Part shown: piece after piece, positions 7,926 through 53,976 of the stretch | Position numbering within the stretch: position 1 is the stretch's first letter | Layout: every line of letters begins with the position of its first letter | Assembly (NCBI GenBank): GCA_016936175.1 | Contig: JAFGPN010000004.1 | Coordinates: forward strand, 5,726 to 69,725 | Source of the DNA: Patescibacteria group bacterium | GTDB lineage: Bacteria > Patescibacteriota > Kazan-3B-28 > UBA10110 | Length of the DNA stretch: 64,000 nucleotides | Direction of reading: 5' to 3' | Notes under the pieces: model-generated | Told to the model about the DNA's origin: nothing | Databases searched by the model: none | The model's input: the letters and a program-made list of their open reading frames with translations, nothing else | Position numbers and translations under genes: made by a program

Positions 7926-8195
7926 ATGTACTTTGTGTATATCATACGGAGTGCGACAACGAGGCGGCACTATGTGGGGCTGACTGCTGATGTTTGCAAA
8001 AGATTGGCTGCTCACAATTCTGGAACCACCAGACCAACTATCAGCGGACGCCCATGGTCGCTAATACATCAGGAAGAATTCAATACTAGGACAGAAGCCC
8101 GAGAACGAGAAAAGTATCTAAAAAGTTATGGTGGCGCCGGTGAGAAACAGGCTATAATCAGGGCGTCCGCTGACAATTATTCCCGGGTCGTCTAA
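7926..8195 (+). CDS. GIY-YIG nuclease family protein (small, stand-alone)
   Basis: MYFVYIIRS...HYVGLT...RLAAHNSG...EAREREKYLK is a GIY-YIG-type fold pattern. I moved the start to ATG 7926, because the track start at 7794 overlaps rarA. The 3' end overlaps the first 15 nt of tRNA-Gln. Confidence 0.7.
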   Translation: MYFVYIIRSATTRRHYVGLTADVCKRLAAHNSGTTRPTISGRPWSLIHQEEFNTRTEAREREKYLKSYGGAGEKQAIIRASADNYSRVV

Positions 8196-8254
8196 GGGCA
8201 GGACACTTGGTTTTGGTCCAAGGAATCGGGGTTCAAATCCCTGCCCGGGAGCCA
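8181..8254 (+). tRNA. tRNA-Gln (anticodon UUG), CCA encoded
   Basis: Manual cloverleaf. The acceptor stem tcccggg/cccggga has 7 perfect bp. D arm is gtc-taagggcag-gac, the anticodon arm is cttgg-ttTTGgt-ccaag, and the T arm is cgggg-ttcaaat-ccctg. Discriminator g is followed by cca. Total length 74 nt. Confidence 0.9.
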
Positions 8255-14034: not shown

Positions 14035-14118
14035 ACTCCCCCGCCATCGGAGGAGGAACGTCCTCGACTGGCGGCCGGTTTGGGGCCACCCGTTTGCCGG
14101 GACAAATGGGTGGTGAAA
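14035..14118 (+). repeat. structured intergenic element, short variant (copy D)
   Basis: ccgcca...tggcgg helix followed by the family 3' hairpin gccacccgtttg-ccggga-caaatgggtgg, as in copies A, B, C and E. Confidence 0.7.
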
Positions 14119-14184
14119 AGAATAACAGATTAAAATCCTGAAACAAGTTCGGGATGACAACGGTGTTTTGTAGGGGAACTTCCA

Positions 14185-15155: not shown

Positions 15156-15572
15156 CTACCACTCAGAAGCCAAGGAAAGTAGCTCGTTTTGAATACTACG
15201 GAAAAAATCCTGGTCTTCTTTATATGTCAGCTTCTCTGCCACCTGAGCAATCGGTACCCATCTGCACTTCAGTATCTCCATGCTCGGTGTTAAGGGCTGA
15301 TTGGCGGCCCGAAACAAAAAATAGTAGATGGTCATAAATTTGTTCTTATCCCCAGACATTCGGGAATAAGATGGATAAGATTTAACATAGTTCAGATTAT
15401 CTGGCTCTATCCCCGCCTCCTCGCCGATTTCTCTAAGGGCGGCCTCGAGATACTCTTCTCCCGGTTCTACCGTGCCTTTGGGCAGTTGCCAACTGTGGGT
15501 ATGAGTAAAAACGAGGACGACCTCGCCCACCTCGTTAACGATTACCCCACCGGCTGATTCTTTTTTAGTCAT
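15156..15572 (-). CDS. NUDIX hydrolase
   Basis: Nudix box GTVEPGEEYLEAALREIGEEAGI. The start was moved to ATG 15572, giving an 8-nt overlap with the cysS stop. Confidence 0.8.
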   Translation of the reverse strand: MTKKESAGGVIVNEVGEVVLVFTHTHSWQLPKGTVEPGEEYLEAALREIGEEAGIEPDNLNYVKSYPSYSRMSGDKNKFMTIYYFLFRAANQPLTPSMEILKCRWVPIAQVAEKLTYKEDQDFFRSIQNELLSLASEW

Positions 15573-17022
15573 TGGTCGATATCCTTGGCCCCCGATTGGT
15601 ATCCTCCACCACAAAACCCAGCTTAGCTATTCTATCGCGCAGTTTATCTGATCTTTGCCAATCTTTGGCCTTCCGAGCCTTTTCTCGCTCTGATACCAGC
15701 TTTTTTACTTCCGCCGGAATCGCTGACGGCTTGTGGTCTTTTAACCCCAATCCTAAAACTTTATCAAAATCCAGCAAAGTTGCCTGTTTGTCCGACAACG
15801 ATTTTTTCGATTTTAACAGTTCCCAAACTACCGTCATTGCCTTTGGCATATTCAAATCATCATTTATCGCCGCCAAAAATCTTTTCTTATATGTCGTGTC
15901 CACTTTCCCTTTGTCATTCCCGCGCCATTCGGCCTCGAGCTCATGGCCGAGAGGAAGGCGGGAATCCATTTTTGTTTTCTGGCTGGATCTCCGGGTCAAG
16001 CCCGAGGATGATGGGAGGGACACAGCAAATACTGCTCGTAATTTATTCAATGAATTCTGTGCGCCTACCAGCGCTGACTTAGAAAAACCTAACTTTTGTC
16101 GATAGTGACCAGAAATCGCCAAATACCGGAATACCATTGGTTCGATTCCCTGCCCCGCTAAATCAGTTAGGGTGTAGAAATTGCCGGCACTCTTGGCCAT
16201 CTTGGCACCATTCACTACCATAAACGCATTGTGGAACCAATAATGCGCTAACGGCTTACCGTACGCCGCCTCGCTTTGAGCAATCTCATTGTTGTGATGA
16301 GTGGCGATGTGATCTTCACCACCCGTATGAATATCAAACGGCTGGCCCAGCTCTTTGGTAGAAATTGCCGAACACTCAATGTGCCAACCCGGATATCCCA
16401 CTCCCCAAGGAGATTTCCACTCCTGTTGCCGTTTTTGCATCCCGGAGAACTTCCATAAAGCAAAGTCGGTTTCTCGTTTCTTATATGGACTGTGCCATAC
16501 TCGCGCCTTACCGGCACCCACTCCACCTAGTCTGCCATAGTTTTTAAATTTGGCCGTATCAAAATAGATTCCATCGGAAGTTTTGTAGGTATAGCCTCTT
16601 TTTTCCAGCTGCTTAATTAATTCGATCTGTTCTTTAATATATTTGCTGGCCCACGCAAATTTATTTGGTAACTCAATGTTTAAAGCTTTTAAATCTCTAA
16701 TGAATTGTTCAGTATAAAATTTGGTAATCTCTTTCGCAGTTTTGCCAGTTTTCTTCGCTTCGCGCTCAATCTTGTCTTCGCCAGTATCGGCATCCGAGGT
16801 TAAATGGCCAACATCGGTGATATTCATCACCTGACGAACTTTGTATCCGTTGTATCCCAACACTCGCCGCAAGATGTCTTCCGCTAAATATGCCCGCAGA
16901 TTGCCGATATGCGCATACTGATAAACAGTTGGTCCGCAGGTATATACAGAAACCTGACCGCGTTTTATCGGTTTAAACTCCTGTTTCTTCCGCCCCAATG
17001 TGTTGAAAAGTTTTAATCCCAT
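15565..17022 (-). CDS. cysS: cysteine--tRNA ligase, carrying an in-frame repeat insertion
   Basis: 485 aa with HIGN, a KMAKS loop and a DALR-like C-terminus. See the repeat at 15913-16013. Confidence 0.92.
   Translation of the reverse strand: MGLKLFNTLGRKKQEFKPIKRGQVSVYTCGPTVYQYAHIGNLRAYLAEDILRRVLGYNGYKVRQVMNITDVGHLTSDADTGEDKIEREAKKTGKTAKEITKFYTEQFIRDLKALNIELPNKFAWASKYIKEQIELIKQLEKRGYTYKTSDGIYFDTAKFKNYGRLGGVGAGKARVWHSPYKKRETDFALWKFSGMQKRQQEWKSPWGVGYPGWHIECSAISTKELGQPFDIHTGGEDHIATHHNNEIAQSEAAYGKPLAHYWFHNAFMVVNGAKMAKSAGNFYTLTDLAGQGIEPMVFRYLAISGHYRQKLGFSKSALVGAQNSLNKLRAVFAVSLPSSSGLTRRSSQKTKMDSRLPLGHELEAEWRGNDKGKVDTTYKKRFLAAINDDLNMPKAMTVVWELLKSKKSLSDKQATLLDFDKVLGLGLKDHKPSAIPAEVKKLVSEREKARKAKDWQRSDKLRDRIAKLGFVVEDTNRGPRISTND
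15913..16013 (+). repeat. two-unit palindromic element inserted in-frame in cysS
   Basis: Positions 15913-15966 are identical over 54 nt to the intergenic copy at 17034-17087. They are followed by a second hairpin unit (ggatctccgggtcaagcccgaggat). The element encodes ...SSGLTRRSSQKTKMDSRLPLGHELEAEWRGND... Confidence 0.85.
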
Positions 17023-17033
17023 ATTTTTCTCTC

Positions 17034-17160
17034 GTCATTCCCGCGCCATTCGGCCTCGAGCTCATGGCCGAGAGGAAGGCGGGAATCTAGAAAACAAAAT
17101 GATTTTTATTTTTTTATCTGGATCCCCGATGTCGAGTCGCTCTGCGCTCGGCTCGAGGAC
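17034..17160 (+). repeat. two-unit palindromic element, intergenic copy upstream of cysS
   Basis: The 54-nt unit gtcattcccgcgccattcggcctcgagctcatggccgagaggaaggcgggaatc is followed by an AT-rich spacer and then a ctggatcccc... hairpin unit. Confidence 0.85.
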
Positions 17161-24480: not shown

Positions 24481-25482
24481 TCATAATACCACAGACTCCC
24501 CGGCCAACCACCTCAACCGTTGAGTAATTTTTCGCCCGCTCACATGTGCCAGATACCCCAAATATGATGGCATCGCTTTGACTACAGTGCCCAAATTGCC
24601 CACCGTCATCTCCCGCGAAATCCTCCCACATATTCGTTTGACTGTTTTCCTCCTCGGCAGGTTGTAGTGGGGCAGAGCGTTGTATCCTATAAAATCTATA
24701 CCCCAAGAGAGTTTGCGTAAGATGAGCTTGTCGGGGTGGAGCTGCAACTTCAGCTCGGATTTCAGAAAATGAGCTATCTCCACAAAATATCCCATCAACT
24801 CACCGGGACCGTCTGCTAACAATGTAAAATCATCGGCATAACGGAGATAGCGCTTAGCTCGAAGCCGATGCTTAGCAAACTTGTCCAACGGATCGAGATA
24901 AACATTGGCGAATAACTGGGATGTCAGATTCCCCAACGGCATCCCTGTGCCACCCGTCTTGTCATTCCCGCTTAGGCGGGAATCCAGGCAACCGAAGCTA
25001 CCAATGATATTTTCCAATAGCCCCAATAATCGCTCATCAGCAATACGGGTTTGCAACAATTCCATCAGCACCTTGTGGTCTACACTATCGAAAAACTTAC
25101 GAATGTCTAACTCCAACGCCCAACAGGGGCTGGTATAGTTTTTACTCACCTTCCGAGCCATCTCTGCCAGTCGGAAAAATCCTTTGTGCGTTCCCTTGTT
25201 CTTCCGGCAAGAATAGCTGTCAAATATAAAGGTTTTATCAAAAGCCGAATGCAGGATACGATAGATGGCATGGTGAAGCAGTCGGTCATGGACAGACGCC
25301 TTACTGATCAGTCGGGGCTTGGGGTCGGAGATGCGGAACTGTTGGTAACCACCATGGCGATACGTACCATCTACCAGCTCTTCGTGCAGGGCAAATATGT
25401 TATCTTCAAGATGGAGTTCAAACGCTTGGACATCCGACTTACTCCGTTTCCCTTTCAGAAACTCCGTCCAGGCTAAGAACAA
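24481..25482 (-). CDS. DGR-type reverse transcriptase
   Basis: 333 aa with YADDF (motif 5) and LGNLTSQ, which fits the [ILV]GxxxSQ signature that separates DGR RTs from group II intron and retron RTs. It uses a TTG start. The RT-like sequence EIISLENL continues in frame upstream to a stop at about 25541, with no canonical start in between. Confidence 0.85.
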   Translation of the reverse strand: MFLAWTEFLKGKRSKSDVQAFELHLEDNIFALHEELVDGTYRHGGYQQFRISDPKPRLISKASVHDRLLHHAIYRILHSAFDKTFIFDSYSCRKNKGTHKGFFRLAEMARKVSKNYTSPCWALELDIRKFFDSVDHKVLMELLQTRIADERLLGLLENIIGSFGCLDSRLSGNDKTGGTGMPLGNLTSQLFANVYLDPLDKFAKHRLRAKRYLRYADDFTLLADGPGELMGYFVEIAHFLKSELKLQLHPDKLILRKLSWGIDFIGYNALPHYNLPRRKTVKRICGRISREMTVGNLGTVVKAMPSYLGYLAHVSGRKITQRLRWLAGESVVL

Positions 25483-25518
25483 ATTCTCTAACGAAATAAT
25501 CTCTGCAAAGACACCATC

Positions 25519-25897
25519 ATGGAAAATAACTTTCCCATTAAGCCCCCCCTACGGATTTGGAGAAATCCCGATTGTATTGAGATTGTATGAGTTCTACCGG
25601 CTTTTGCATGATGCCATTCAAAAATTTCCCAAGTCAGAGAAATATTCTCTCGGTCAGACGCTTCAGAATACGACTCTCGCCCTGCTACGATCGATTATAA
25701 TTGCTACCCGATCAGACAAAATGACTCGAAGAGATTATTTGGTTGCCGGTAATGCCGACCTAGATGTTTTAAAACTGCTTATCCGCCTAGCGGTCAACAC
25801 TCAATCGCTGGATCAGAAAAAATATCTTCTACTGGAAACCCAGCTCCAAGAAATTGGTCGGATGCTAGGCGGATGGCTCCGCAGTTTAGAAAATTAG
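25519..25897 (+). CDS. Avd-like four-helix-bundle accessory protein, frame interrupted at a C7 tract
   Basis: ...EIPIVLRLYEFYRLLHDAIQKFPKSEKYSLGQTLQNTTLALLRSI...LETQLQEIGRMLGGWLRSLEN matches the 23S-IVS/Avd family pattern. ATG 25519 is one frame off, and loss of one C in 25543-25549 would fuse the two frames. The alternative in-frame TTG at 25577 would clip helix 1. Confidence 0.6.
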
Positions 25898-25899
25898 CT

Positions 25900-26029
25900 A
25901 CTCCGAGGAAGGCCACCACCGTACCATAGTTGTCGTTCGGATTGTCAGCATTCCTGTTGTCGAACTTCAGCTGATCGTCGTTGAAATAGAAGTACACAGA
26001 GTTCGTCCAGTTGCCATCGGCGTTCCAGT
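25900..26029 (-). repeat. DGR template repeat (TR)
   Basis: 130 nt, collinear with the VR at a constant +448 offset. Read on the minus strand it encodes the Asn-rich WNADGNWTNSVYFYFNDDQLKFDNRNADNPNDNYGTVVAFLGV. Confidence 0.85.
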
Positions 26030-26260
26030 GTTGCCTCTTCACTATCCAGGTCACTGCGAGCTAAAGGTGATAGCTTCGCTGTATTTTATGTGGGGAGTTA
26101 CCCTCAATCTTATGAGAGGCAAGGAGTGTCTAATTCTCAAGTCGGCCCTCTCGGGTGGAATAAATTCTACCAGACTCCGGCCGGGTGCTTGTGACACAAT
26201 TTCGGCGGACTAAATCCGTAAACTTAGCCACACTGCCTACTTTCACATCTATTTTACAAT

Positions 26261-26291
26261 AAAAAATGCGGCGGGTAGAAACACCCGCCGC
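26261..26291 (-). terminator. intrinsic terminator after the DGR target gene
   Basis: The hairpin gcggcgggt-agaaac-acccgccgc is followed by a U6 run on the minus strand. Confidence 0.75.
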
Positions 26292-26343
26292 CTTGAAAGC
26301 GAACGCAAAGTTCGAAAATTGCAAAGGACCAATCCCCAAGTTG

Positions 26344-27246
26344 CTACACTCCGAGGAAGGCCACCACCGTACCACAGTCGTCGTCCGGATAGCCAGCACG
26401 CCTGTCGTCGAACACCAGCTGACCGTCGTCGAAAGCGAAGTACACAGAGTCCGTCCAGTCGCCATCGGCGCTCCAGTCCCACTCATCTCCCGAGCAATCA
26501 ACGAAGAGTTGCCCATAAGCGGTAAGCCGGTCCGGCATGGTCAGTAGCAGGCAAGCCACTTGAGCGGTGATCAGCGGAAGCTGATTATTGTTCAGCGCTT
26601 CGAAGCGAGCATTGCGGGGACTGAAGCCAGCGTAGAGATCGCCGAAATTGAAGGACAGCACTAGCACATCACCGGGGGTCTCGGCCTCCAGCTTCTTTAG
26701 CTGCTCCCGGACATCTTCCATAATGCGGATGTGCTGCTCGTCCATCTGACCCGCTCGGTAGTTATAGAAAGAGCGGCTCGCGGCAATCAGTTCGAACAGT
26801 TTCTCACACATCGCGCCATAGCCCTTGCCATAAGGATCAGTGATATTCCAGAGCTCAGCCAAATAGGCAAGCTTAGGAATTACCGCCAATCCGTCAGCCA
26901 ACTTCTGTGCCTTGACCTTGGCTACTAACGCATCAACCTGCGACAGATCGATCCGCTTAAATAGCTTGATCAAGCGAGCCTTTTGCTCCTCGATAGTGGC
27001 CGATTTCCACCCCTTAGGGTAGAACCAGGCCCGCTTGACCCGTTCATCAATGTACGGGTTGGTCGGAATCAGTGCCTCGAACAGGGCGACGAACTTCTGC
27101 TTGAAGTCACTTACCCAGTTCGTGTCACTGATCATCCTCTGGACCATAGCAAAACCAAATCGGTTCAGTACGGTCTTCAAGGCATCAATTACAAACGAGC
27201 CGATCTGCCGGGCTTGCCCAACAGTCATCAAAGTTGACCTCGACAT
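26344..27246 (-). CDS. DGR target (variable) protein
   Basis: 300 aa from ATG 27246, with RBS aaggag 7 nt upstream. The C-terminal 43 aa are VR-encoded. I see no signal peptide or TM helix, and the N-terminal ~250 aa are unrecognised. Confidence 0.8.
   Translation of the reverse strand: MSRSTLMTVGQARQIGSFVIDALKTVLNRFGFAMVQRMISDTNWVSDFKQKFVALFEALIPTNPYIDERVKRAWFYPKGWKSATIEEQKARLIKLFKRIDLSQVDALVAKVKAQKLADGLAVIPKLAYLAELWNITDPYGKGYGAMCEKLFELIAASRSFYNYRAGQMDEQHIRIMEDVREQLKKLEAETPGDVLVLSFNFGDLYAGFSPRNARFEALNNNQLPLITAQVACLLLTMPDRLTAYGQLFVDCSGDEWDWSADGDWTDSVYFAFDDGQLVFDDRRAGYPDDDCGTVVAFLGV
26348..26477 (-). repeat. DGR variable repeat (VR), 3' end of the target gene
   Basis: 17 mismatches to the TR. 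16 of them fall where the TR has A on the coding strand. The 3'-most 27 nt are identical and GC-rich. Confidence 0.85.
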
Positions 27247-27488
27247 CTGAAGTCTCCTTTTTAACCAACCTCTGCGAGGCATTCCGGTTTACCGGAACTT
27301 ACGGGTTAGACCGCCTCCTCAGCGTTGGGTTAGCACAGCCGCTAACGCTACCAATGTAGCACAAAACTCGCTCCCAGCCAAGATTTTCCCGCTCCCAAAC
27401 CTGATTTTATTCTACCCTCTTCTCTATCCCGCCCTCCAGATTAGAGCGCTTTTACGCCATTGGAGCCCGAGTGTCCCTGTCTTTCTTA

Positions 27489-27684
27489 CCCCATTGAGCA
27501 AATTGCGTTATCCGGCAGTAAAACTGCCGTTTGGCGCGATCGTTGTCTGAGGCCAGCTACATGGGTAGATGGCCGAGTTCGATCGATATAAGCCAAGTAA
27601 GGCAGTTTTGGTAGCCGGATAGCAATTTGTGATTGGGTCCGCCTTTGGGCGCCACCCGTTTGGCGGGGCAAATGGGTGGCAAAA
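27489..27684 (+). repeat. structured intergenic element, full copy A
   Basis: The 5' arm ccccattgagcaaattgcgttatccggc pairs with the 3' arm gccggatagcaatttgtgattgggt. The conserved core is gagttcga..aagccaagtaaggca. The 3' hairpin is gccacccgtttg-gcgggg-caaatgggtggc, followed by aaaa. Confidence 0.8.
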
Positions 27685-27714
27685 GTAAATTAAGAAAAAA
27701 TTTTATGTTTCTTT

Positions 27715-27840
27715 CTGGGTCCCCGTCTTCACGGGGATGACAGAAAAAATGGATTCCTGCCTTCGCAGGAATGACAAGTTGGGGTTCTAGGTCCCCGGGT
27801 CAAGCCCAAGGACAAGGGAGCAAGGTCCGCCAGCTGGCGG
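27715..27840. repeat. cluster of short palindromic hairpin units
   Basis: The units are ctgggtccccgtcttcacggggatgacag, ggattcctgccttcgcaggaatgacaag, ctaggtccccgggtcaagcccaaggacaaggg and ccgccagctggcgg. Confidence 0.8.
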
Positions 27841-39292: not shown

Positions 39293-39485
39293 CCCCATTG
39301 AACAAATTGCGTAAGCCAATAGCAAAACTGCCGCTACGGCGCGGCTGCTATTTGAGTCCCGGTATACCGGGACGAGTTCAACTAATAGAAGCCAAGTAAG
39401 GCACCGTTTTGCCTTTTGGGTAGTAATTTGTGATTGGGGCCGCCTTTAGACGCCACCCGTTTGGCGGAGCAAATGGGTGGCAAAA
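39293..39485 (+). repeat. structured intergenic element, full copy B
   Basis: Same architecture as copy A. The internal hairpin is gtcccgg-tata-ccgggac and the 3' hairpin is gccacccgtttg-gcggag-caaatgggtggc. Confidence 0.8.
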
Positions 39486-39531
39486 CAAATTTTAGTAACT
39501 TTGGTAAAAGTAAACAAGATATAATGGGTGC

Positions 39532-40884
39532 ATGGCTAATACAATTCAATTTTTGGGCGCCGCGGGAGTCGTTACCGGCTCTAGTTATTTAGTATCAACC
39601 GATTCGGCTAAGTTCTTGATCGATTGCGGATTGTTTCAAGGCGCGGCGGCGGCGGACAGAAAGAATTATCAATCGTTCCCTTATAATCCAACCAAGATTA
39701 ATTTTCTTATTTTAACTCACGCTCACTTAGATCACTGTGGCTTAATCCCTAAACTGTATCGGGATGGATTTCGGGGACGTATCTACACTACCCCGGCAAC
39801 CTTCGATCTAGCTCAAGCCATTTTAACCAACGCCGCCCAAATCCAAGAACACGGCGTCACCGACAAACAACTGGAAGCTTTGTTTATAAAACGCGACGCC
39901 ACTAATTCGTTTAAGCTTTTCGAAACTCACGAATATGGTAAAACCTTCTCCCCGATGCCGGGCATTAAAGTGCGACTTAATGATGCCGGGCATATCTTGG
40001 GAGCCGCCATCGTCGAGGTATGGATCCAAGGTCAAAAACTGGTCTTCTCCGGAGATCTGGGCAACAGCCCGGTACCCATCATGAAAGACCCCACCATTAT
40101 TCGAGACGCTAACTATGTTATCTGTGAATCGACCTACGGCGATAGGTTGCACGAGCCACCTTCTGCTCGCGAAAAGAATCTATTGGCGACAATCAAGCAA
40201 GCCGCCAGAGATGGCGCCAAACTGATCATCCCCTCTTTTGCTTTAGAGCGCAGCCAAGATCTGCTCTACACTTTAAATAATTTTCGTAACAGCGGGGTAC
40301 TTCCCAATATCCCCGTGATATTAGACAGCCCCTTGGCCTCTCAAATCACCGATATCTTTAAGCGATACACCAAATTATTTGATGCGGATTTTCAAAGATA
40401 CTTAAAGACCGATAAAGATCTGTTCGATTTCCCCGGCTTTCGCCAGACCAGAACTAAATTTCAATCCAAGGCCCTAAACCAGTTATCGGGCGCCGCTGTG
40501 ATCATCGCTGGTTCTGGCATGGCCGATGCGGGCCGAGTTCAACACCATCTGCTTCACCATTTGGACGAACCCAGAACCCAAGTGCTATTCGTTGGCTTCC
40601 AAACTCCCAACACTTTAGGTCGCCGATTAATTAACGGGGCACGTCAGGTTAGAATAATGCGCCATCGGATTACGGTAAAAGCTCAGATCAAAGAGTTGGG
40701 CGCCTTCTCGGCTCATGCCGATCAGGCCGGACTACTGCGTTGGTTATCGGGCTTTACCTCTAAGCCCACTGTATTTTTGACTCACGGCGAAAATATCTCT
40801 CGCGAAGCGTTAGCTAAAAAAGTTTTGAGCAAACTTAAACTTAAGGCAGTTATCCCAGCTATGGGAGAGATAAAAACAATATAA
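39532..40884 (+). CDS. MBL-fold beta-CASP ribonuclease (RNase J/CPSF-like)
   Basis: 450 aa with the HAHLDHCG motif and beta-CASP and C-terminal motifs (SAHAD). TATAAT lies 7 nt upstream of the ATG. Confidence 0.8.
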   Translation: MANTIQFLGAAGVVTGSSYLVSTDSAKFLIDCGLFQGAAAADRKNYQSFPYNPTKINFLILTHAHLDHCGLIPKLYRDGFRGRIYTTPATFDLAQAILTNAAQIQEHGVTDKQLEALFIKRDATNSFKLFETHEYGKTFSPMPGIKVRLNDAGHILGAAIVEVWIQGQKLVFSGDLGNSPVPIMKDPTIIRDANYVICESTYGDRLHEPPSAREKNLLATIKQAARDGAKLIIPSFALERSQDLLYTLNNFRNSGVLPNIPVILDSPLASQITDIFKRYTKLFDADFQRYLKTDKDLFDFPGFRQTRTKFQSKALNQLSGAAVIIAGSGMADAGRVQHHLLHHLDEPRTQVLFVGFQTPNTLGRRLINGARQVRIMRHRITVKAQIKELGAFSAHADQAGLLRWLSGFTSKPTVFLTHGENISREALAKKVLSKLKLKAVIPAMGEIKTI

Positions 40885-44659: not shown

Positions 44660-45199
44660 CTACGGCTCTAACACTGCATCCCGTTCGCCATTATTAATGG
44701 TCAACGCAATATTGGCCATCCCGTCTACTTCAAACTGCTTCATCAGCCTCTCAATCGAGCCGGAGATTGCTACTACTCGGGCTGAACCACCCATCGGTGT
44801 ATCAAAGTTATTATTAAAATCGATGATTGCCTGACCATTATCGATGTTAACCGAATTGACTACTACCCCATCATTGAGAGGGCTACTCATCCCTTGCGAT
44901 CGTTGGCCCTCGGTCGGACCTTTTATCCATTCTTGGATAGTCGCCAAGGCCAATTCATTTATTGCGTTAGTTTTAGGCACAATACGTTCAACCGCCACAA
45001 AATCAAAATCCGTTTCGGTTGGCACAACATAGTAAACCAACACCGACTGAGTGTTAGATTGGATAACACTCGGTTTTTTTAGTTGCGAGGTAGTGGTATA
45101 GACCCAAATGCCCAACAACACCAGCGGGATAATTGCCAGCGTCCACCACAACGAAAGATTATTTTCTTTCTTTTTCGCCATACGCTTATTATAAACCAT
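44660..45199 (-). CDS. GerMN-domain protein with N-terminal anchor
   Basis: 179 aa with one TM helix. The GerM-like pattern is VYYV...EWIKGPT...VNSVNIDNGQAIIDFN. Confidence 0.65.
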   Translation of the reverse strand: MVYNKRMAKKKENNLSLWWTLAIIPLVLLGIWVYTTTSQLKKPSVIQSNTQSVLVYYVVPTETDFDFVAVERIVPKTNAINELALATIQEWIKGPTEGQRSQGMSSPLNDGVVVNSVNIDNGQAIIDFNNNFDTPMGGSARVVAISGSIERLMKQFEVDGMANIALTINNGERDAVLEP

Positions 45200-45229: not shown

Positions 45230-45472
45230 CCCATTGAGGCGATTGCGTCAGCCAATAGCAAAACTGTTGCTACGGCGCGGCTGCTATTTGAGCCCCGGTA
45301 TACCGGGGCGAGTTCAGCTAATCTAAGCCAAGTAAGGCAGTTTTGGTATTTGGGTAGCAATTGGTGATTGGGAGGTCTTTTGGGGCGCCACCCCGTTTGG
45401 ATGCCCAGACTAAGACCATGGGTCTTTAGTTCGGAAATACTCTAGGGGGTACAAGCAAATAGGGTGGCAAAA
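45230..45472 (+). repeat. structured intergenic element, full copy C (with ~56-nt insertion in the 3' hairpin loop)
   Basis: The internal hairpin gccccgg-tata-ccggggc shows a compensatory change relative to copy B. The 3' stem is gccaccccgtttg ... caaatagggtggc. Confidence 0.8.
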
Positions 45473-45514
45473 CTGATTCTAAAAAAAGTCCTTATAGAAG
45501 CTATAATTAGACTG

Positions 45515-46297
45515 ATGGAACTAACCGTTCTAAAACTCGGGGGGAGTATTCTCACTCACAAATACCAGAGTGGAGAGTTTGACCCCGTTACGGCCGATCG
45601 GCTAGCCCAAGAAATCAGACAAGCACTGACCAGCTCCCCCCAGCAACTAATCTTAATCCATGGGGCAGGCGGTAAAGTTCATCGCTTGGCCAACGAGTCT
45701 AATCTAAAAACCGGAGCCATAACCCCAGCTCAGATTGATGGCTCGCTCAAAACTCATTTTGCGGTATGTGAGCTAACTCAGCAATTATTGCCCATTTTAT
45801 CCAACCACAATCTACCCGTAACGCCTCTCCCCGCCAACTCGATGTTCCTAATAAAAAATGGCCAGTTAGAAATCGTGGGGGCAGAGTTGGTTGAACGGGC
45901 TTTAAAACTCGGCCTGATTCCCCTACTCTCCGGTGATATGGTGTTTGACGATCAAACTAACTTTTCTATTTTATCTGGCGATCGAGTGGCCACAGTTTTA
46001 GCCCAAATATTTAAGGCTAAAAAAATTATCTTTGCCAGTGATGTTGATGGGCTATACGATAGTGACCCCAAAACTAATCCGCAGGCTAAGCTTATTAAAC
46101 AAGCCAAACTAAACAACATCGATACTACTGCTGATACCACTTCGTCGATTGACACCACCAACCAAATGCTGGGTAAGATCGCCGCGTTGATGAGAGATGC
46201 TAAAAATATTTCAGTTCAAATCGTTAACGGTTTAGTAGCTGGTCGATTAGAACAGGCTCTGACCAATCAATCGGTTATCGGAAGTTTGATTGAATAA
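45515..46297 (+). CDS. isopentenyl phosphate kinase-like (amino acid kinase family)
   Basis: VLKLGGSILT, LIHGAGGKVH and FASDVDGLYDSDPKTNP motifs. I moved the start to ATG 45515, because the track start at 45464 lies inside the repeat hairpin. Confidence 0.65.
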   Translation: MELTVLKLGGSILTHKYQSGEFDPVTADRLAQEIRQALTSSPQQLILIHGAGGKVHRLANESNLKTGAITPAQIDGSLKTHFAVCELTQQLLPILSNHNLPVTPLPANSMFLIKNGQLEIVGAELVERALKLGLIPLLSGDMVFDDQTNFSILSGDRVATVLAQIFKAKKIIFASDVDGLYDSDPKTNPQAKLIKQAKLNNIDTTADTTSSIDTTNQMLGKIAALMRDAKNISVQIVNGLVAGRLEQALTNQSVIGSLIE

Positions 46298-53640: not shown

Positions 53641-53857
53641 CCCCCGCCATCGGATGATTTGTGCCCTATCCCATGTAGCCAATTGCGCTGTTTCCCCCGC
53701 CATTGGAGCTTGAGTGTTCTGAGCCCAACAAATCACTGTCGCGAAGCCCGTTGTCTGTTAGGGCGAGAGCGGTAAGGTGATTTGTTGAGGCGAATAGCGA
53801 GAGCGACTGGCGGCCGGTTTGGCGCCACCGTTTGCCGGGACAAATGGTGGCAAAAAA
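53641..53857 (+). repeat. structured intergenic element, mosaic copy E
   Basis: It shares cccccgccatcgg and gactggcggccggtttgg with copy D, and gccattggagc.gagtgt.c with the region upstream of copy A. Its 3' hairpin, gccaccgtttg-ccggga-caaatggtggc, is 1 bp shorter on both arms. Confidence 0.7.
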
Positions 53858-53879
53858 GATAATAAGCTAAAATTTCCGC

Positions 53880-53976
53880 CGGAGTTTATACTCGCTTGCG
53901 GGTGCAGGAATGACAAATCAATTTTTATGTCTGGATCCCCGTCTCCACGGGGATGACGACGCAGGGTAAACGTCGT
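53880..53976. repeat. cluster of short palindromic hairpin units
   Basis: The units are gcaggaatgacaa, tctggatccccgtctccacggggatgacg and acgacg-cagggtaaa-cgtcgt. Confidence 0.75.

Follow-up and report, generated by a model that had tools for sequence, protein, structure and literature searches.

ERIC/IRU, RUP and Correia sequences are multi-copy, intergenic, imperfect palindromes of ~100–200 nt that vary in presence at orthologous sites and are combined with other small repeats. In transposons of the IS200/IS605 type, orientation is locked because movement occurs as single-stranded DNA (ssDNA) on the lagging-strand template (PMC5027513). Here we describe an element that shares traits with both, found in three full copies in a stretch of 64,000 nt (contig JAFGPN010000004.1, positions 5,726 to 69,725; hereafter, the window) from a bacterium of candidate division Kazan (Patescibacteria). 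An initial annotation, made from the letters of the window, had described the copy at 39293–39485 as a multi-copy intergenic element behaving like a structured plus-strand RNA. We regard it as a dispersed, non-autonomous element that is functional as the folded + strand, probably as RNA, and that spreads by a replication-coupled single-strand route. This reading is tentative, and we would put its probability at roughly 45%. It draws on the anatomy of the element, its co-variation, strand bias, discreteness as a unit, context, superfamily and chimeras, site turnover and orientation lock.

Copies in the Window and in Related Genomes

The three annotated copies of ~195 nt, all in one orientation, were found on the + strand at 27489–27685 (copy A, whose end we place at 27685), 39293–39485 (copy B, the subject of the initial annotation) and 45230–45472 (copy C). 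We refer to them as family 1. Copy A comprises a rod domain (27489–27641), a linker, a terminal hairpin (27651–27680) and a final AAAAG (27681–27685). In copy B, the strands of the closing helix P1 are at 39293–39310 (5') and 39423–39439 (3'), the core loop with its hairpin at 39350–39379 (GTCCCGG-TATA-CCGGGAC at 39356–39373), the invariant block AAGCCAAGTAAGGCA at 39389–39403, the terminal hairpin at 39452–39481 and the closing AAAA at 39482–39485. The terminal-hairpin stem of copy C is formed by 45387–45399 with 45456–45468. Pairwise identities (blastn, + strand) are 76% for A and B, 84% for B and C, and 71% for A and C, in a window whose G+C content is 47% and whose protein matches point to a "Patescibacteria group bacterium" with ties to candidate division Kazan.

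The conserved blocks first proposed hold in part. While AAGCCAAGTAAGGCA and GTGATTGGG are identical in A, B and C, the 5' block CCCCATTGA.CAAATTGCG and the GAGTTC.A block are found in A and B but not in C, which reads (A)CCCATTGAGGCGATTGCG and GAGTTCAG instead. Likewise, the 12-bp terminal stem GCCACCCGTTTG/CAAATGGGTGGC followed by AAAA is exact in A and B, whereas the stem of C encloses an insertion of ~54 nt (45400–45453), which holds a hairpin of its own, AGACTAAGACC-ATG-GGTCTTTAGT. The substitutions put forward as signs of selection on structure are all present in the sequences: the compensatory change from gTcccgg..ccgggAc in B to gCcccgg..ccgggGc in C, the different hairpin GGCCAGCTAC..GTAGATGGCC that copy A has at that place, a G-U pair in A that is A-U in B, and the G-U pair in the terminal hairpin.

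A two-block pattern scan of a genome collection yielded copies in Kazan bacterium METE01 and in the Patescibacteria metagenome-assembled genome (MAG) JBAZHL01, and a three-block scan of metagenomes yielded 15 further loci; syntenic regions of relatives were obtained through their RNase J homologues. (Loci outside the window are given by our handles, L001 and so on.) Searching all loci with nhmmer returned 26 matches, 16 of them distinct family-1 sequences, which come from the window and at least four or five other Kazan-clade genomes or metagenome populations and make up alignment A3. Copies occur once per ~13 kb in the window and once per ~4–5 kb in the METE01 loci. Genomes of Patescibacteria, or the candidate phyla radiation (CPR), are small and gene-dense, yet roughly 1.5–5% of the DNA sampled from this clade is spent on one family of structured repeats. 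In more distant relatives, no copy of the element was present in 21 kb of L027 or in 33 kb of L028/L029; an exact-pattern scan of viral contigs gave 0 matches, and blastn against plasmid and phage collections gave none. As far as sampled, the element is restricted to one subclade of candidate division Kazan.

Fold and Strand Preference

The + strand of the element is selected for a single-strand fold of two domains. The fold was obtained from A3 by RNAalifold with ribosum scoring. Domain 1 is an irregular rod of ~150 nt closed by CCCA/UGGG, with a tandem G-A loop at its base (UUGAG opposite GUGAU) that is followed, in order, by the helices CAAAUUGC/GCAAUUUG, CCGG/CCGG, AAAACUGCC/GGCAGUUUU, GGCGC/GYGCC and GGCUG/CAGCC. 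In the core of the rod, a variable hairpin is surrounded by another G-A loop, which is asymmetric (UUGUYUGAG ... CGAGUU), and an invariant AAGUAAG loop is also part of the rod. Domain 2 is the 3' terminal stem-loop, clamped by CUUUU/AAAAG. The AAAA(G) tail is thus not single-stranded but paired with the CUUUU ahead of the terminal hairpin, a pairing missed in the initial annotation; the only copies that have CAUUU in its place have GAAUAAG.

Across the 63 pairs of the fold, 92.3% of the cells in A3 hold standard pairs, versus 85.0 ± 0.6% in shuffles. Changes on both sides were observed at 22 of the 63 pairs (13.4 ± 1.8 in shuffles), a count reached by 0 of 500 shuffles, and sliding the partners by 1–3 columns gave only 3–6 double-changed pairs. 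Whole helices switch coherently, from GGCUG/CAGCC to GAUCG/CGAUC to GGCAC/GUGCC, from CCGG/CCGG to CCAA/UUGG, and from GCCACCC/GGGUGGC to GCUACCA/UGGUAGC. The minimum free energies of copies A, B and C, compared with dinucleotide shuffles, correspond to z-scores of −8.0, −5.4 and −3.6, respectively. The conserved secondary structure originally proposed is therefore borne out by co-variation on the 16-copy alignment.

Invariance in A3 extends to blocks that are unpaired, namely GAGUUC, AAGUAAG and the G-A dinucleotides, and a plain DNA palindrome would not need such blocks. Together with the conserved G-U pairs and the G-A loops, which resemble kink-turns (k-turns), they suggest a protein-binding or tertiary core in the modeled fold. 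RNAalifold first placed two small hairpins in the core; in the model we adopted, the long helix AAAACUGCC/GGCAGUUUU takes their place, and at this helix L005b carries the double change UUGUC/GACAA. The two-hairpin core and the long-helix core may be alternatives.

The + strand RNA was the more stable one in 16 of 16 family-1 copies, by a mean of −12 kcal/mol, in agreement with the strand originally favored. Where a pair is predicted on both strands (55 pairs), there are 45 cases of G-U versus 13 of A-C (21 versus 11 when columns are counted). The element has a GC skew of +0.16 on the + strand and its surroundings one of −0.14; as it is G-rich within C-rich surroundings, mutation bias does not explain the G-U excess. 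We infer that G-A loops and conserved wobble pairs characterize RNA more than DNA.

Unit Boundaries

The element is a discrete unit of ~195–200 nt, extending from CCCAUUGAG to GGYRGC-RAAAAG, and the similarity among copies begins at the first base of P1. At L002 and L006, two loci of one MAG, the match covers the whole unit, from CCCATTGAG to GGTAGCGAAAA; only the length of the terminal A-run differs, and the flanks of the two copies are unrelated to each other.

Because the element is multi-copy, intergenic and variable in presence at orthologous sites, it behaves in these respects like a classical MITE (miniature inverted-repeat transposable element), and a young MITE with inverted termini was the alternative originally envisaged. 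That alternative fails on three counts. The copies are old (71–88% identity). Their ends are not terminal inverted repeats (TIRs): the L002/L006 unit, from CCCATTGAG to GGTAGCGAAAA(A)GG, has non-complementary termini, and the inverted arms, P1, lie internal to the 3' hairpin domain. Finally, the flanks of 14 copies contain no consistent direct repeat of the kind left by target-site duplication (TSD). We also considered whether the T-rich 5' flank might pair with the A-rich 3' flank to give an outer closing helix or TIR, and dropped the idea because the duplex energies were no better than those of shuffles.

Orientation Relative to Replication

All of the ~25 distinct copies, whether of family 1 or of the type II described below, lie on the C-rich (lagging) strand of their locus, and none was found in the opposite orientation in ~364 kb. 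The GC skew of the loci, taken in element orientation, ranges from −0.03 to −0.23. Over positions 1–64000 of the window the + strand skew is uniformly negative (−0.07 to −0.16) with no sign change, and the whole window is within one replichore. Among the 56 open reading frames (ORFs) of at least 100 aa in the window, 44 are on the − (G-rich) strand; the tRNA-Gln gene (8181–8254) is on the lagging strand.

An orientation that is simply antisense to the flanking genes is ruled out by two copies, both of which keep the common orientation. One, at L003 1916, is located between two + strand genes, for an M23/LysM peptidase and an intein-containing XerC-like recombinase; the other, at 14038 in the window, follows a + strand SdpI-like gene. 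The GC skew stays negative across + strand genes, meaning that it marks the replication strand and not the coding strand. Together with the two discriminating copies, this indicates that the element's orientation is locked to replication and not to local transcription. The recombinase gene at L003 (2221–4431), directly downstream of the type-II copy, encodes a XerC/XerD-type tyrosine recombinase and is split by a LAGLIDADG intein.

A replication-strand lock that is independent of the direction of the flanking genes is of the same kind as that of IS200/IS605 (PMC5027513), so that the element could be a DNA-level one, i.e., a non-autonomous ssDNA transposon or a REP/BIME-like repeat (IS200/IS605-, RAYT- or IS91/Helitron-like) whose folds would matter in ssDNA at the fork, with RNA irrelevant. 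Also consistent with this are the lack of TIRs and target duplications, the subterminal hairpin a few nucleotides from the 3' boundary, the good fold with DNA parameters and the mosaic, nested architecture, which is like that of BIMEs. However, instead of hairpins at both ends, as in IS200/IS605 and REP sequences, the element has one at the 3' end only. There is no conserved target of 4–5 nt on its 5' side, where the flanks are T-rich and share no common tetranucleotide, and the better-folding, G-T-rich strand, if it is the active one, belongs to the leading-strand template, contrary to the IS608 rule. The leading-template fold, the single hairpin and the missing target tetranucleotide mean that membership in IS200/IS605 is not supported. 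Moreover, HUH transposases are not known to need a rod of 150 nt in which unpaired blocks are invariant and G-A loops occur, and no HUH, Y1 or RAYT gene was found among the 32 of 56 window ORFs scanned with Pfam, four ORFs of L003 or the Pfam-annotated genes of L022–L029. On balance, we consider an element acting at the DNA level alone rather unlikely.

Exchange of Parts and Turnover of Sites

A point absent from the initial annotation is that the terminal hairpin module also occurs at 14085–14120 and 53824–53858, on different bodies. The second of these belongs to a type-II member (53694–53858, + strand), in which the 5' strand CCCCCGCCATTGGAG pairs with CGACTGGCGG and the body differs from that of family 1, with which it shares TTTGG, the terminal hairpin (53824–53851) and AAAAAAG. 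Two + strand fragments precede it, a second copy of the 5' motif (53641–53655) and a family-1 5' fragment (53670–53687), and a homologous composite of this region is found at L003 1880–2110. Type II also occurs at L009 10310, L016 7534 and L023 15206 and 20864. The first is a short member (14038–14120, + strand), which starts 7 nt past the stop of the SdpI-like gene; here a small hairpin (14038–14074) arises from the pairing of the 5' motif with its partner, and the shared terminal hairpin (14085–14114) and GAAAAG follow.

Common to type II and family 1 are the base motif CCA-UUG(G)AG opposite (C/U)GA(C/U)-UGG, a core loop made of GCUGUUGUCUGA and GAGUUCAGC around a hairpin, the linker UUUUGG, and the terminal hairpin with its A-run, in which the letters of the hairpin can differ entirely (GUUACUUUUC..GAAAAGUAAC). 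A hidden Markov model (HMM) of type II retrieved family-1 copies (E-values of 1e-9 to 1e-14) in addition to more type-II copies, and a chimera at L003 7473 joins a type-II 5' half to a family-1 3' half. Furthermore, an orphan motif, CCCCGCCAUYGGAG..GAG, precedes 10 of the 16 family-1 copies. Just upstream of copy A (CGCCATTGGAGCCCGAGTGTCC, 27452–27475, + strand) it represents the closing helix of type II by its 5' strand only, the partner strand being absent, which looks like the trace of a body replacement by recombination. Pieces comparable to the nested insertion of copy C follow the type-II terminal hairpins in L003, L009 and L025, where an orphan 3' half of the family-1 hairpin, TTGGACGAGCAAAATGGTAGCGAAAAAG, is present.

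Sites vary between genomes. In relatives, the RNase J gene has no copy upstream, and the spacer there is only ~55 nt. Between the genes for a Germane-domain protein and an amino-acid kinase, the window has copy C, L023 has a type-II copy and L025 a remnant, and the spacer of L027 has none of these. Downstream of mraY there is a type-II copy in both the window and L023 (mraY|murD); in L025 and L016 mraY and murD are separated by a DUF3800 gene, with family 1 between that gene and mraY. Copy A is 88% identical to that of L001, downstream hairpins included, and the neighbors differ (rplI/glyS in L001 versus ftsQ for A). Presence and absence, swaps of type and the occurrence of A and L001 in different contexts all indicate that copies are gained, lost, moved and converted.

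Neighboring Genes and Promoters

Almost all copies have, 6–110 nt from their 5' side, the start of a gene encoded on the opposite strand; for copy B and L005b the distance to the ATG of that gene is only 6–12 nt. This gene start has a TATAAT box 5–10 nt before the ATG. The same arrangement, with TATAAT (or TAGAAT/TACAAT) at 5–10 nt and no Shine–Dalgarno sequence, is seen at many genes (39521–39534 and 45505–45518 in the window, and in L001, L002, L008, L016 and L005), and judging from these sequences the mRNAs of this lineage appear to be leaderless as a rule. With TATAAT so close to the ATG of leaderless genes, the element lies upstream of promoters and outside untranslated regions.

On the 3' side of most copies there are one to three small hairpins, GATYC-stem-GRATGAC, some of which read as − strand intrinsic terminators of the convergent gene; those at 27772–27753 (facing the convergent ftsQ-like gene) and at L001 1626–1607 are terminator-like on the − strand, with a T-run. 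With a promoter on the 5' side and terminator-like hairpins on the 3' side, the element fills the gap between the terminator of one gene and the promoter of the next. The hairpins themselves, GATYC-stem-GRATGAC(A), constitute a separate repeat family: they occupy 27716–27812 (+ strand) beside copy A, with an equivalent in L001, and with one to three per site they also occur at 14130–14162, at 53890–53957 and at many other loci (e.g., L001 1575–1640). Housekeeping genes with no relation to one another flank the copies (ftsQ, a SpoU methylase, an RNase J-like gene, a Germane-domain gene, an amino-acid kinase and mraY/murD, as well as rplA/dut, rplL/tgt and rplI/glyS).

Copies B and C end 44–47 nt before the ATG of a + strand gene, for RNase J and the amino-acid kinase, respectively, as a riboswitch-like, cis-regulatory leader might do. 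Still, the downstream gene is convergent in 11 of 14 family-1 contexts, and downstream genes are leaderless with a TATAAT of their own 6–8 nt before the ATG, which places the element upstream of the promoter. There is also no functional theme among the flanking genes, and the RNase J orthologues of relatives are without the element. We rejected the leader, which we regard as extremely unlikely.

Comparison of the copies and a promoter scan revealed no promoter that belongs to, or travels with, the conserved unit. For A, B and the type-II copy at 53694, the scan called no sigma-70-type site upstream. Near copy C a single one was called (45133–45162, + strand), inside the neighboring − strand gene and ~68 nt upstream of C, which is not above chance (1 found versus 0.8 expected from shuffles). 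These results bear on the possibility that the copies are host-kept genes for a multi-gene family of trans-acting, structured noncoding RNAs (ncRNAs), for example the RNA of a ribonucleoprotein that binds an L7Ae-like k-turn protein. Strong co-variation, invariant loops, two tandem G-A motifs and the preference for the + strand speak for such genes, as does the occupation of some intergenic sites across related genomes, and no known family matches. Yet the unit starts at the first base of P1 without a promoter, and in B and L005b only 6–12 nt separate it from the neighboring ATG. One copy per 4–13 kb, chimeric bodies and presence/absence variation are likewise at odds with RNA genes, and all copies are head-on to replication, which would be unusual for expressed ones. 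We therefore find ncRNA genes unlikely, albeit worth serious attention. What had been annotated as a structured plus-strand RNA thus stands as to structure and strand preference, but the copies are unlike a set of ordinary small RNA (sRNA) genes.

The arrangement of promoters also invites the idea of a domesticated, orientation-specific insulator, in which the + strand RNA fold would stop or destabilize head-on transcripts (divergent ones from symmetric TATAAT promoters, or read-through from lagging-strand genes) and protect the upstream convergent gene and the fork. Indeed, on its 5' side the element always has a source of transcription along the + strand, be it a leaderless TATAAT promoter (in ~25 copies) or the end of a + strand gene (in 2), the 3' side faces the end of a convergent gene or another promoter, and some sites are occupied across genomes. 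On the other hand, the + strand has no hairpin followed by a U-tract, and a simple terminator would have no need of invariant loops. Only a minority of the promoters in the window have a copy, and + strand genes such as those for RNase J and the amino-acid kinase lack one at their 3' ends. An insulator is, in our view, very unlikely. An intrinsic terminator was rejected for either strand, the + strand having UUUU before and AAAA after the terminal hairpin, with the tracts reversed from what is needed; a terminator scan inside the element found no G+C-rich hairpin directly followed by a U-tract.

Possible Route of Spread

In the reading we prefer, of a dispersed element that works as its folded + strand, the active form would most likely be RNA. 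Transcription, if any, would occur by read-in from the TATAAT of the leaderless gene on the element's 5' side, a box that we take, from its symmetry, as possibly bidirectional. Bidirectional promoters arise from the symmetry of the −10 box. Copying or conversion between sites would proceed via a single-strand intermediate coupled to the replication fork, which would explain why every copy is on the same replication strand.

Several results weigh against this reading. We found no transposase among the scanned ORFs, and no TSD, TIR or conserved target sequence at the copies. Calculated with DNA parameters, the energies of the two strands are −55.7 and −48.3 kcal/mol (z-scores of −7.8 and −7.5), a similarity that leaves room for a role as ssDNA, and RNA is proposed as the most likely active form from the type of structural features in the modeled fold. 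The near-identical pair L002/L006 could reflect gene conversion rather than transposition, and the active strand of IS200/IS605 lies on the lagging-strand template (PMC5027513), the other one from that of the better-folding strand here. The Germane and mraY spacers stay occupied across genomes whose RNase J sequences are ~80% identical, and such long-occupied sites hint at a host benefit over a purely selfish element. Finally, the sample is small (~364 kb), with several loci from the same populations.

A more specific variant of this route would be a bacterial counterpart of short interspersed nuclear elements (SINEs), i.e., a structured RNA, mobile through reverse transcription or as a single strand, that is expressed from neighboring bidirectional promoters and copied into intergenic sites at the fork, possibly by a reverse transcriptase of the type found in diversity-generating retroelements (DGRs). 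Such a mode of copying would account for a fold of the RNA type, for clean boundaries that lack TIR and TSD, and for the absolute lock to one replication strand, and the host could in addition have domesticated the element as an insulator against head-on transcription. We hold the SINE-like proposal to be distinctly unlikely.

The window does contain a DGR, at 24481–27282, with a reverse transcriptase gene (24481–25479, − strand), a bAvd-like gene (25397–25894, + strand) and a template/variable repeat pair of 130 nt and 87% identity (25900–26029 and 26348–26477). The variable repeat is at the 3' end of a target gene of 312 aa (26344–27282, − strand), and copy A lies ~200 nt upstream of this gene. 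L003 and L018 show the same arrangement of bAvd, a target-like ORF and then an element copy, with a reverse transcriptase also next to L003. Between copy A and the target gene there is a promoter-like stretch, TTGRCTGGGAGCNNGTTTTGTGCTA(C/A)AT, on the − strand (27300–27400), which was also seen at L018 (on the 5' side of copy L018a), a Kazan metagenome locus.

The window holds another repeat, a hairpin of 63 nt in two copies that are 94% identical (15904–15966 and 17025–17087; also 15983–16008). One copy is just upstream of the start of cysS and the other is inside the cysS frame (15565–17019, − strand), between the catalytic and the anticodon-binding domains, where the frame is open and translated as ...PSSSGLTRRSSQKTKMDSRLPLGHELEAEWRGNDKGK.... 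In-frame insertions of palindromic elements are known from Rickettsia, and the repeat inside cysS resembles them.

Irrespective of the actual route, the element offers a testable handle on the interplay of intergenic space, leaderless promoters and replication direction, and its alignment can serve as the seed for a new RNA or repeat family model. Should the element act as RNA, a phylum that is poorly understood would gain a new and abundant class of ncRNA, probably with a protein partner; should it act as ssDNA, it would point to an unrecognized system of single-strand mobilization.

Comparison with Known Systems

When the whole window was searched with Rfam 15 at the gathering threshold, only the tRNA-Gln passed. 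In E-value mode (E ≤ 10), the best matches of A, B and the type-II copy were at chance level and far below gathering; families without a match include 6S, Y RNA/YrlA, SRP, tmRNA, RNase P, riboswitches, ribozymes, HEARO and the DUF3800 motifs. The initial annotation was therefore right in recognizing no named RNA family. Apparent likenesses to T-box, tracrRNA, hammerhead, twister and T-loop sequences were dropped, as the supposed conserved letters co-vary or are absent in other copies and no Rfam model matched. Our searches of the literature on structured repeats of the CPR returned nothing specific. The family is thus not described in Rfam or in the literature searched, and as a structured interspersed repeat, or orphan ncRNA motif, it is of a known kind.

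The co-varying helices, conserved loops and restriction to a lineage are shared with the orphan "Gene; sRNA" motifs of Rfam. Unlike these, the element has no promoter of its own, has a very high copy number and forms modular chimeras, the last two being atypical of ncRNA genes that occur once per genome.

The k-turns and tandem sheared G-A motifs, which are sites of the L7Ae family, are approached by the two internal loops of the element, each with GA opposite GA beside an asymmetric bulge of 2–3 nt and with a flanking pair that co-varies from G-C to C-G. Read from the sequence, the layout of the core loop is UUG-UYU-GA-N / N'-GA-GUU, in which the 3b-3n pair co-varies and the three C-helix positions beside the bulge would be G-G, U-U and U-U. 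In a canonical k-turn, a Watson–Crick C helix and a 3-nt bulge are followed by G-A and A-G pairs, and A1n is directly followed by the C helix. It is here that the element departs from k-turns: the bulge-side helix starts with G-G and U-U oppositions, or there is an extra nucleotide on the non-bulged strand, and as read from the sequence neither loop appears to fit the canonical form.

In length, intergenic location and the predominance of one long imperfect stem, the element resembles ERIC/IRU, RUP and Correia, a likeness in general features. It differs from them in that its ends are not inverted repeats, no target duplication is present and there is an extra 3' stem-loop; its invariant unpaired blocks and 100% replication-strand lock set it further apart. 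With REP/BIME and IS200/IS605-derived sequences it shares structure in one strand, the lack of TIR and TSD, a mosaic arrangement and a replication-tied orientation (PMC5027513). Here the differences are a hairpin at one end, no target tetranucleotide, a better-folding strand on the leading-strand template, no Y1 transposase in the scanned ORFs and a much larger conserved fold.

Taken together, the traits of the family are unusual: its fold is of the RNA type, TIR and TSD are lacking, bodies are exchanged as modules and the replication-strand lock is 100%. RNA-style conservation, the genomics of a repeat (copy number, chimeras, turnover) and an absolute replication-strand lock are rarely combined, and the element joins all three.

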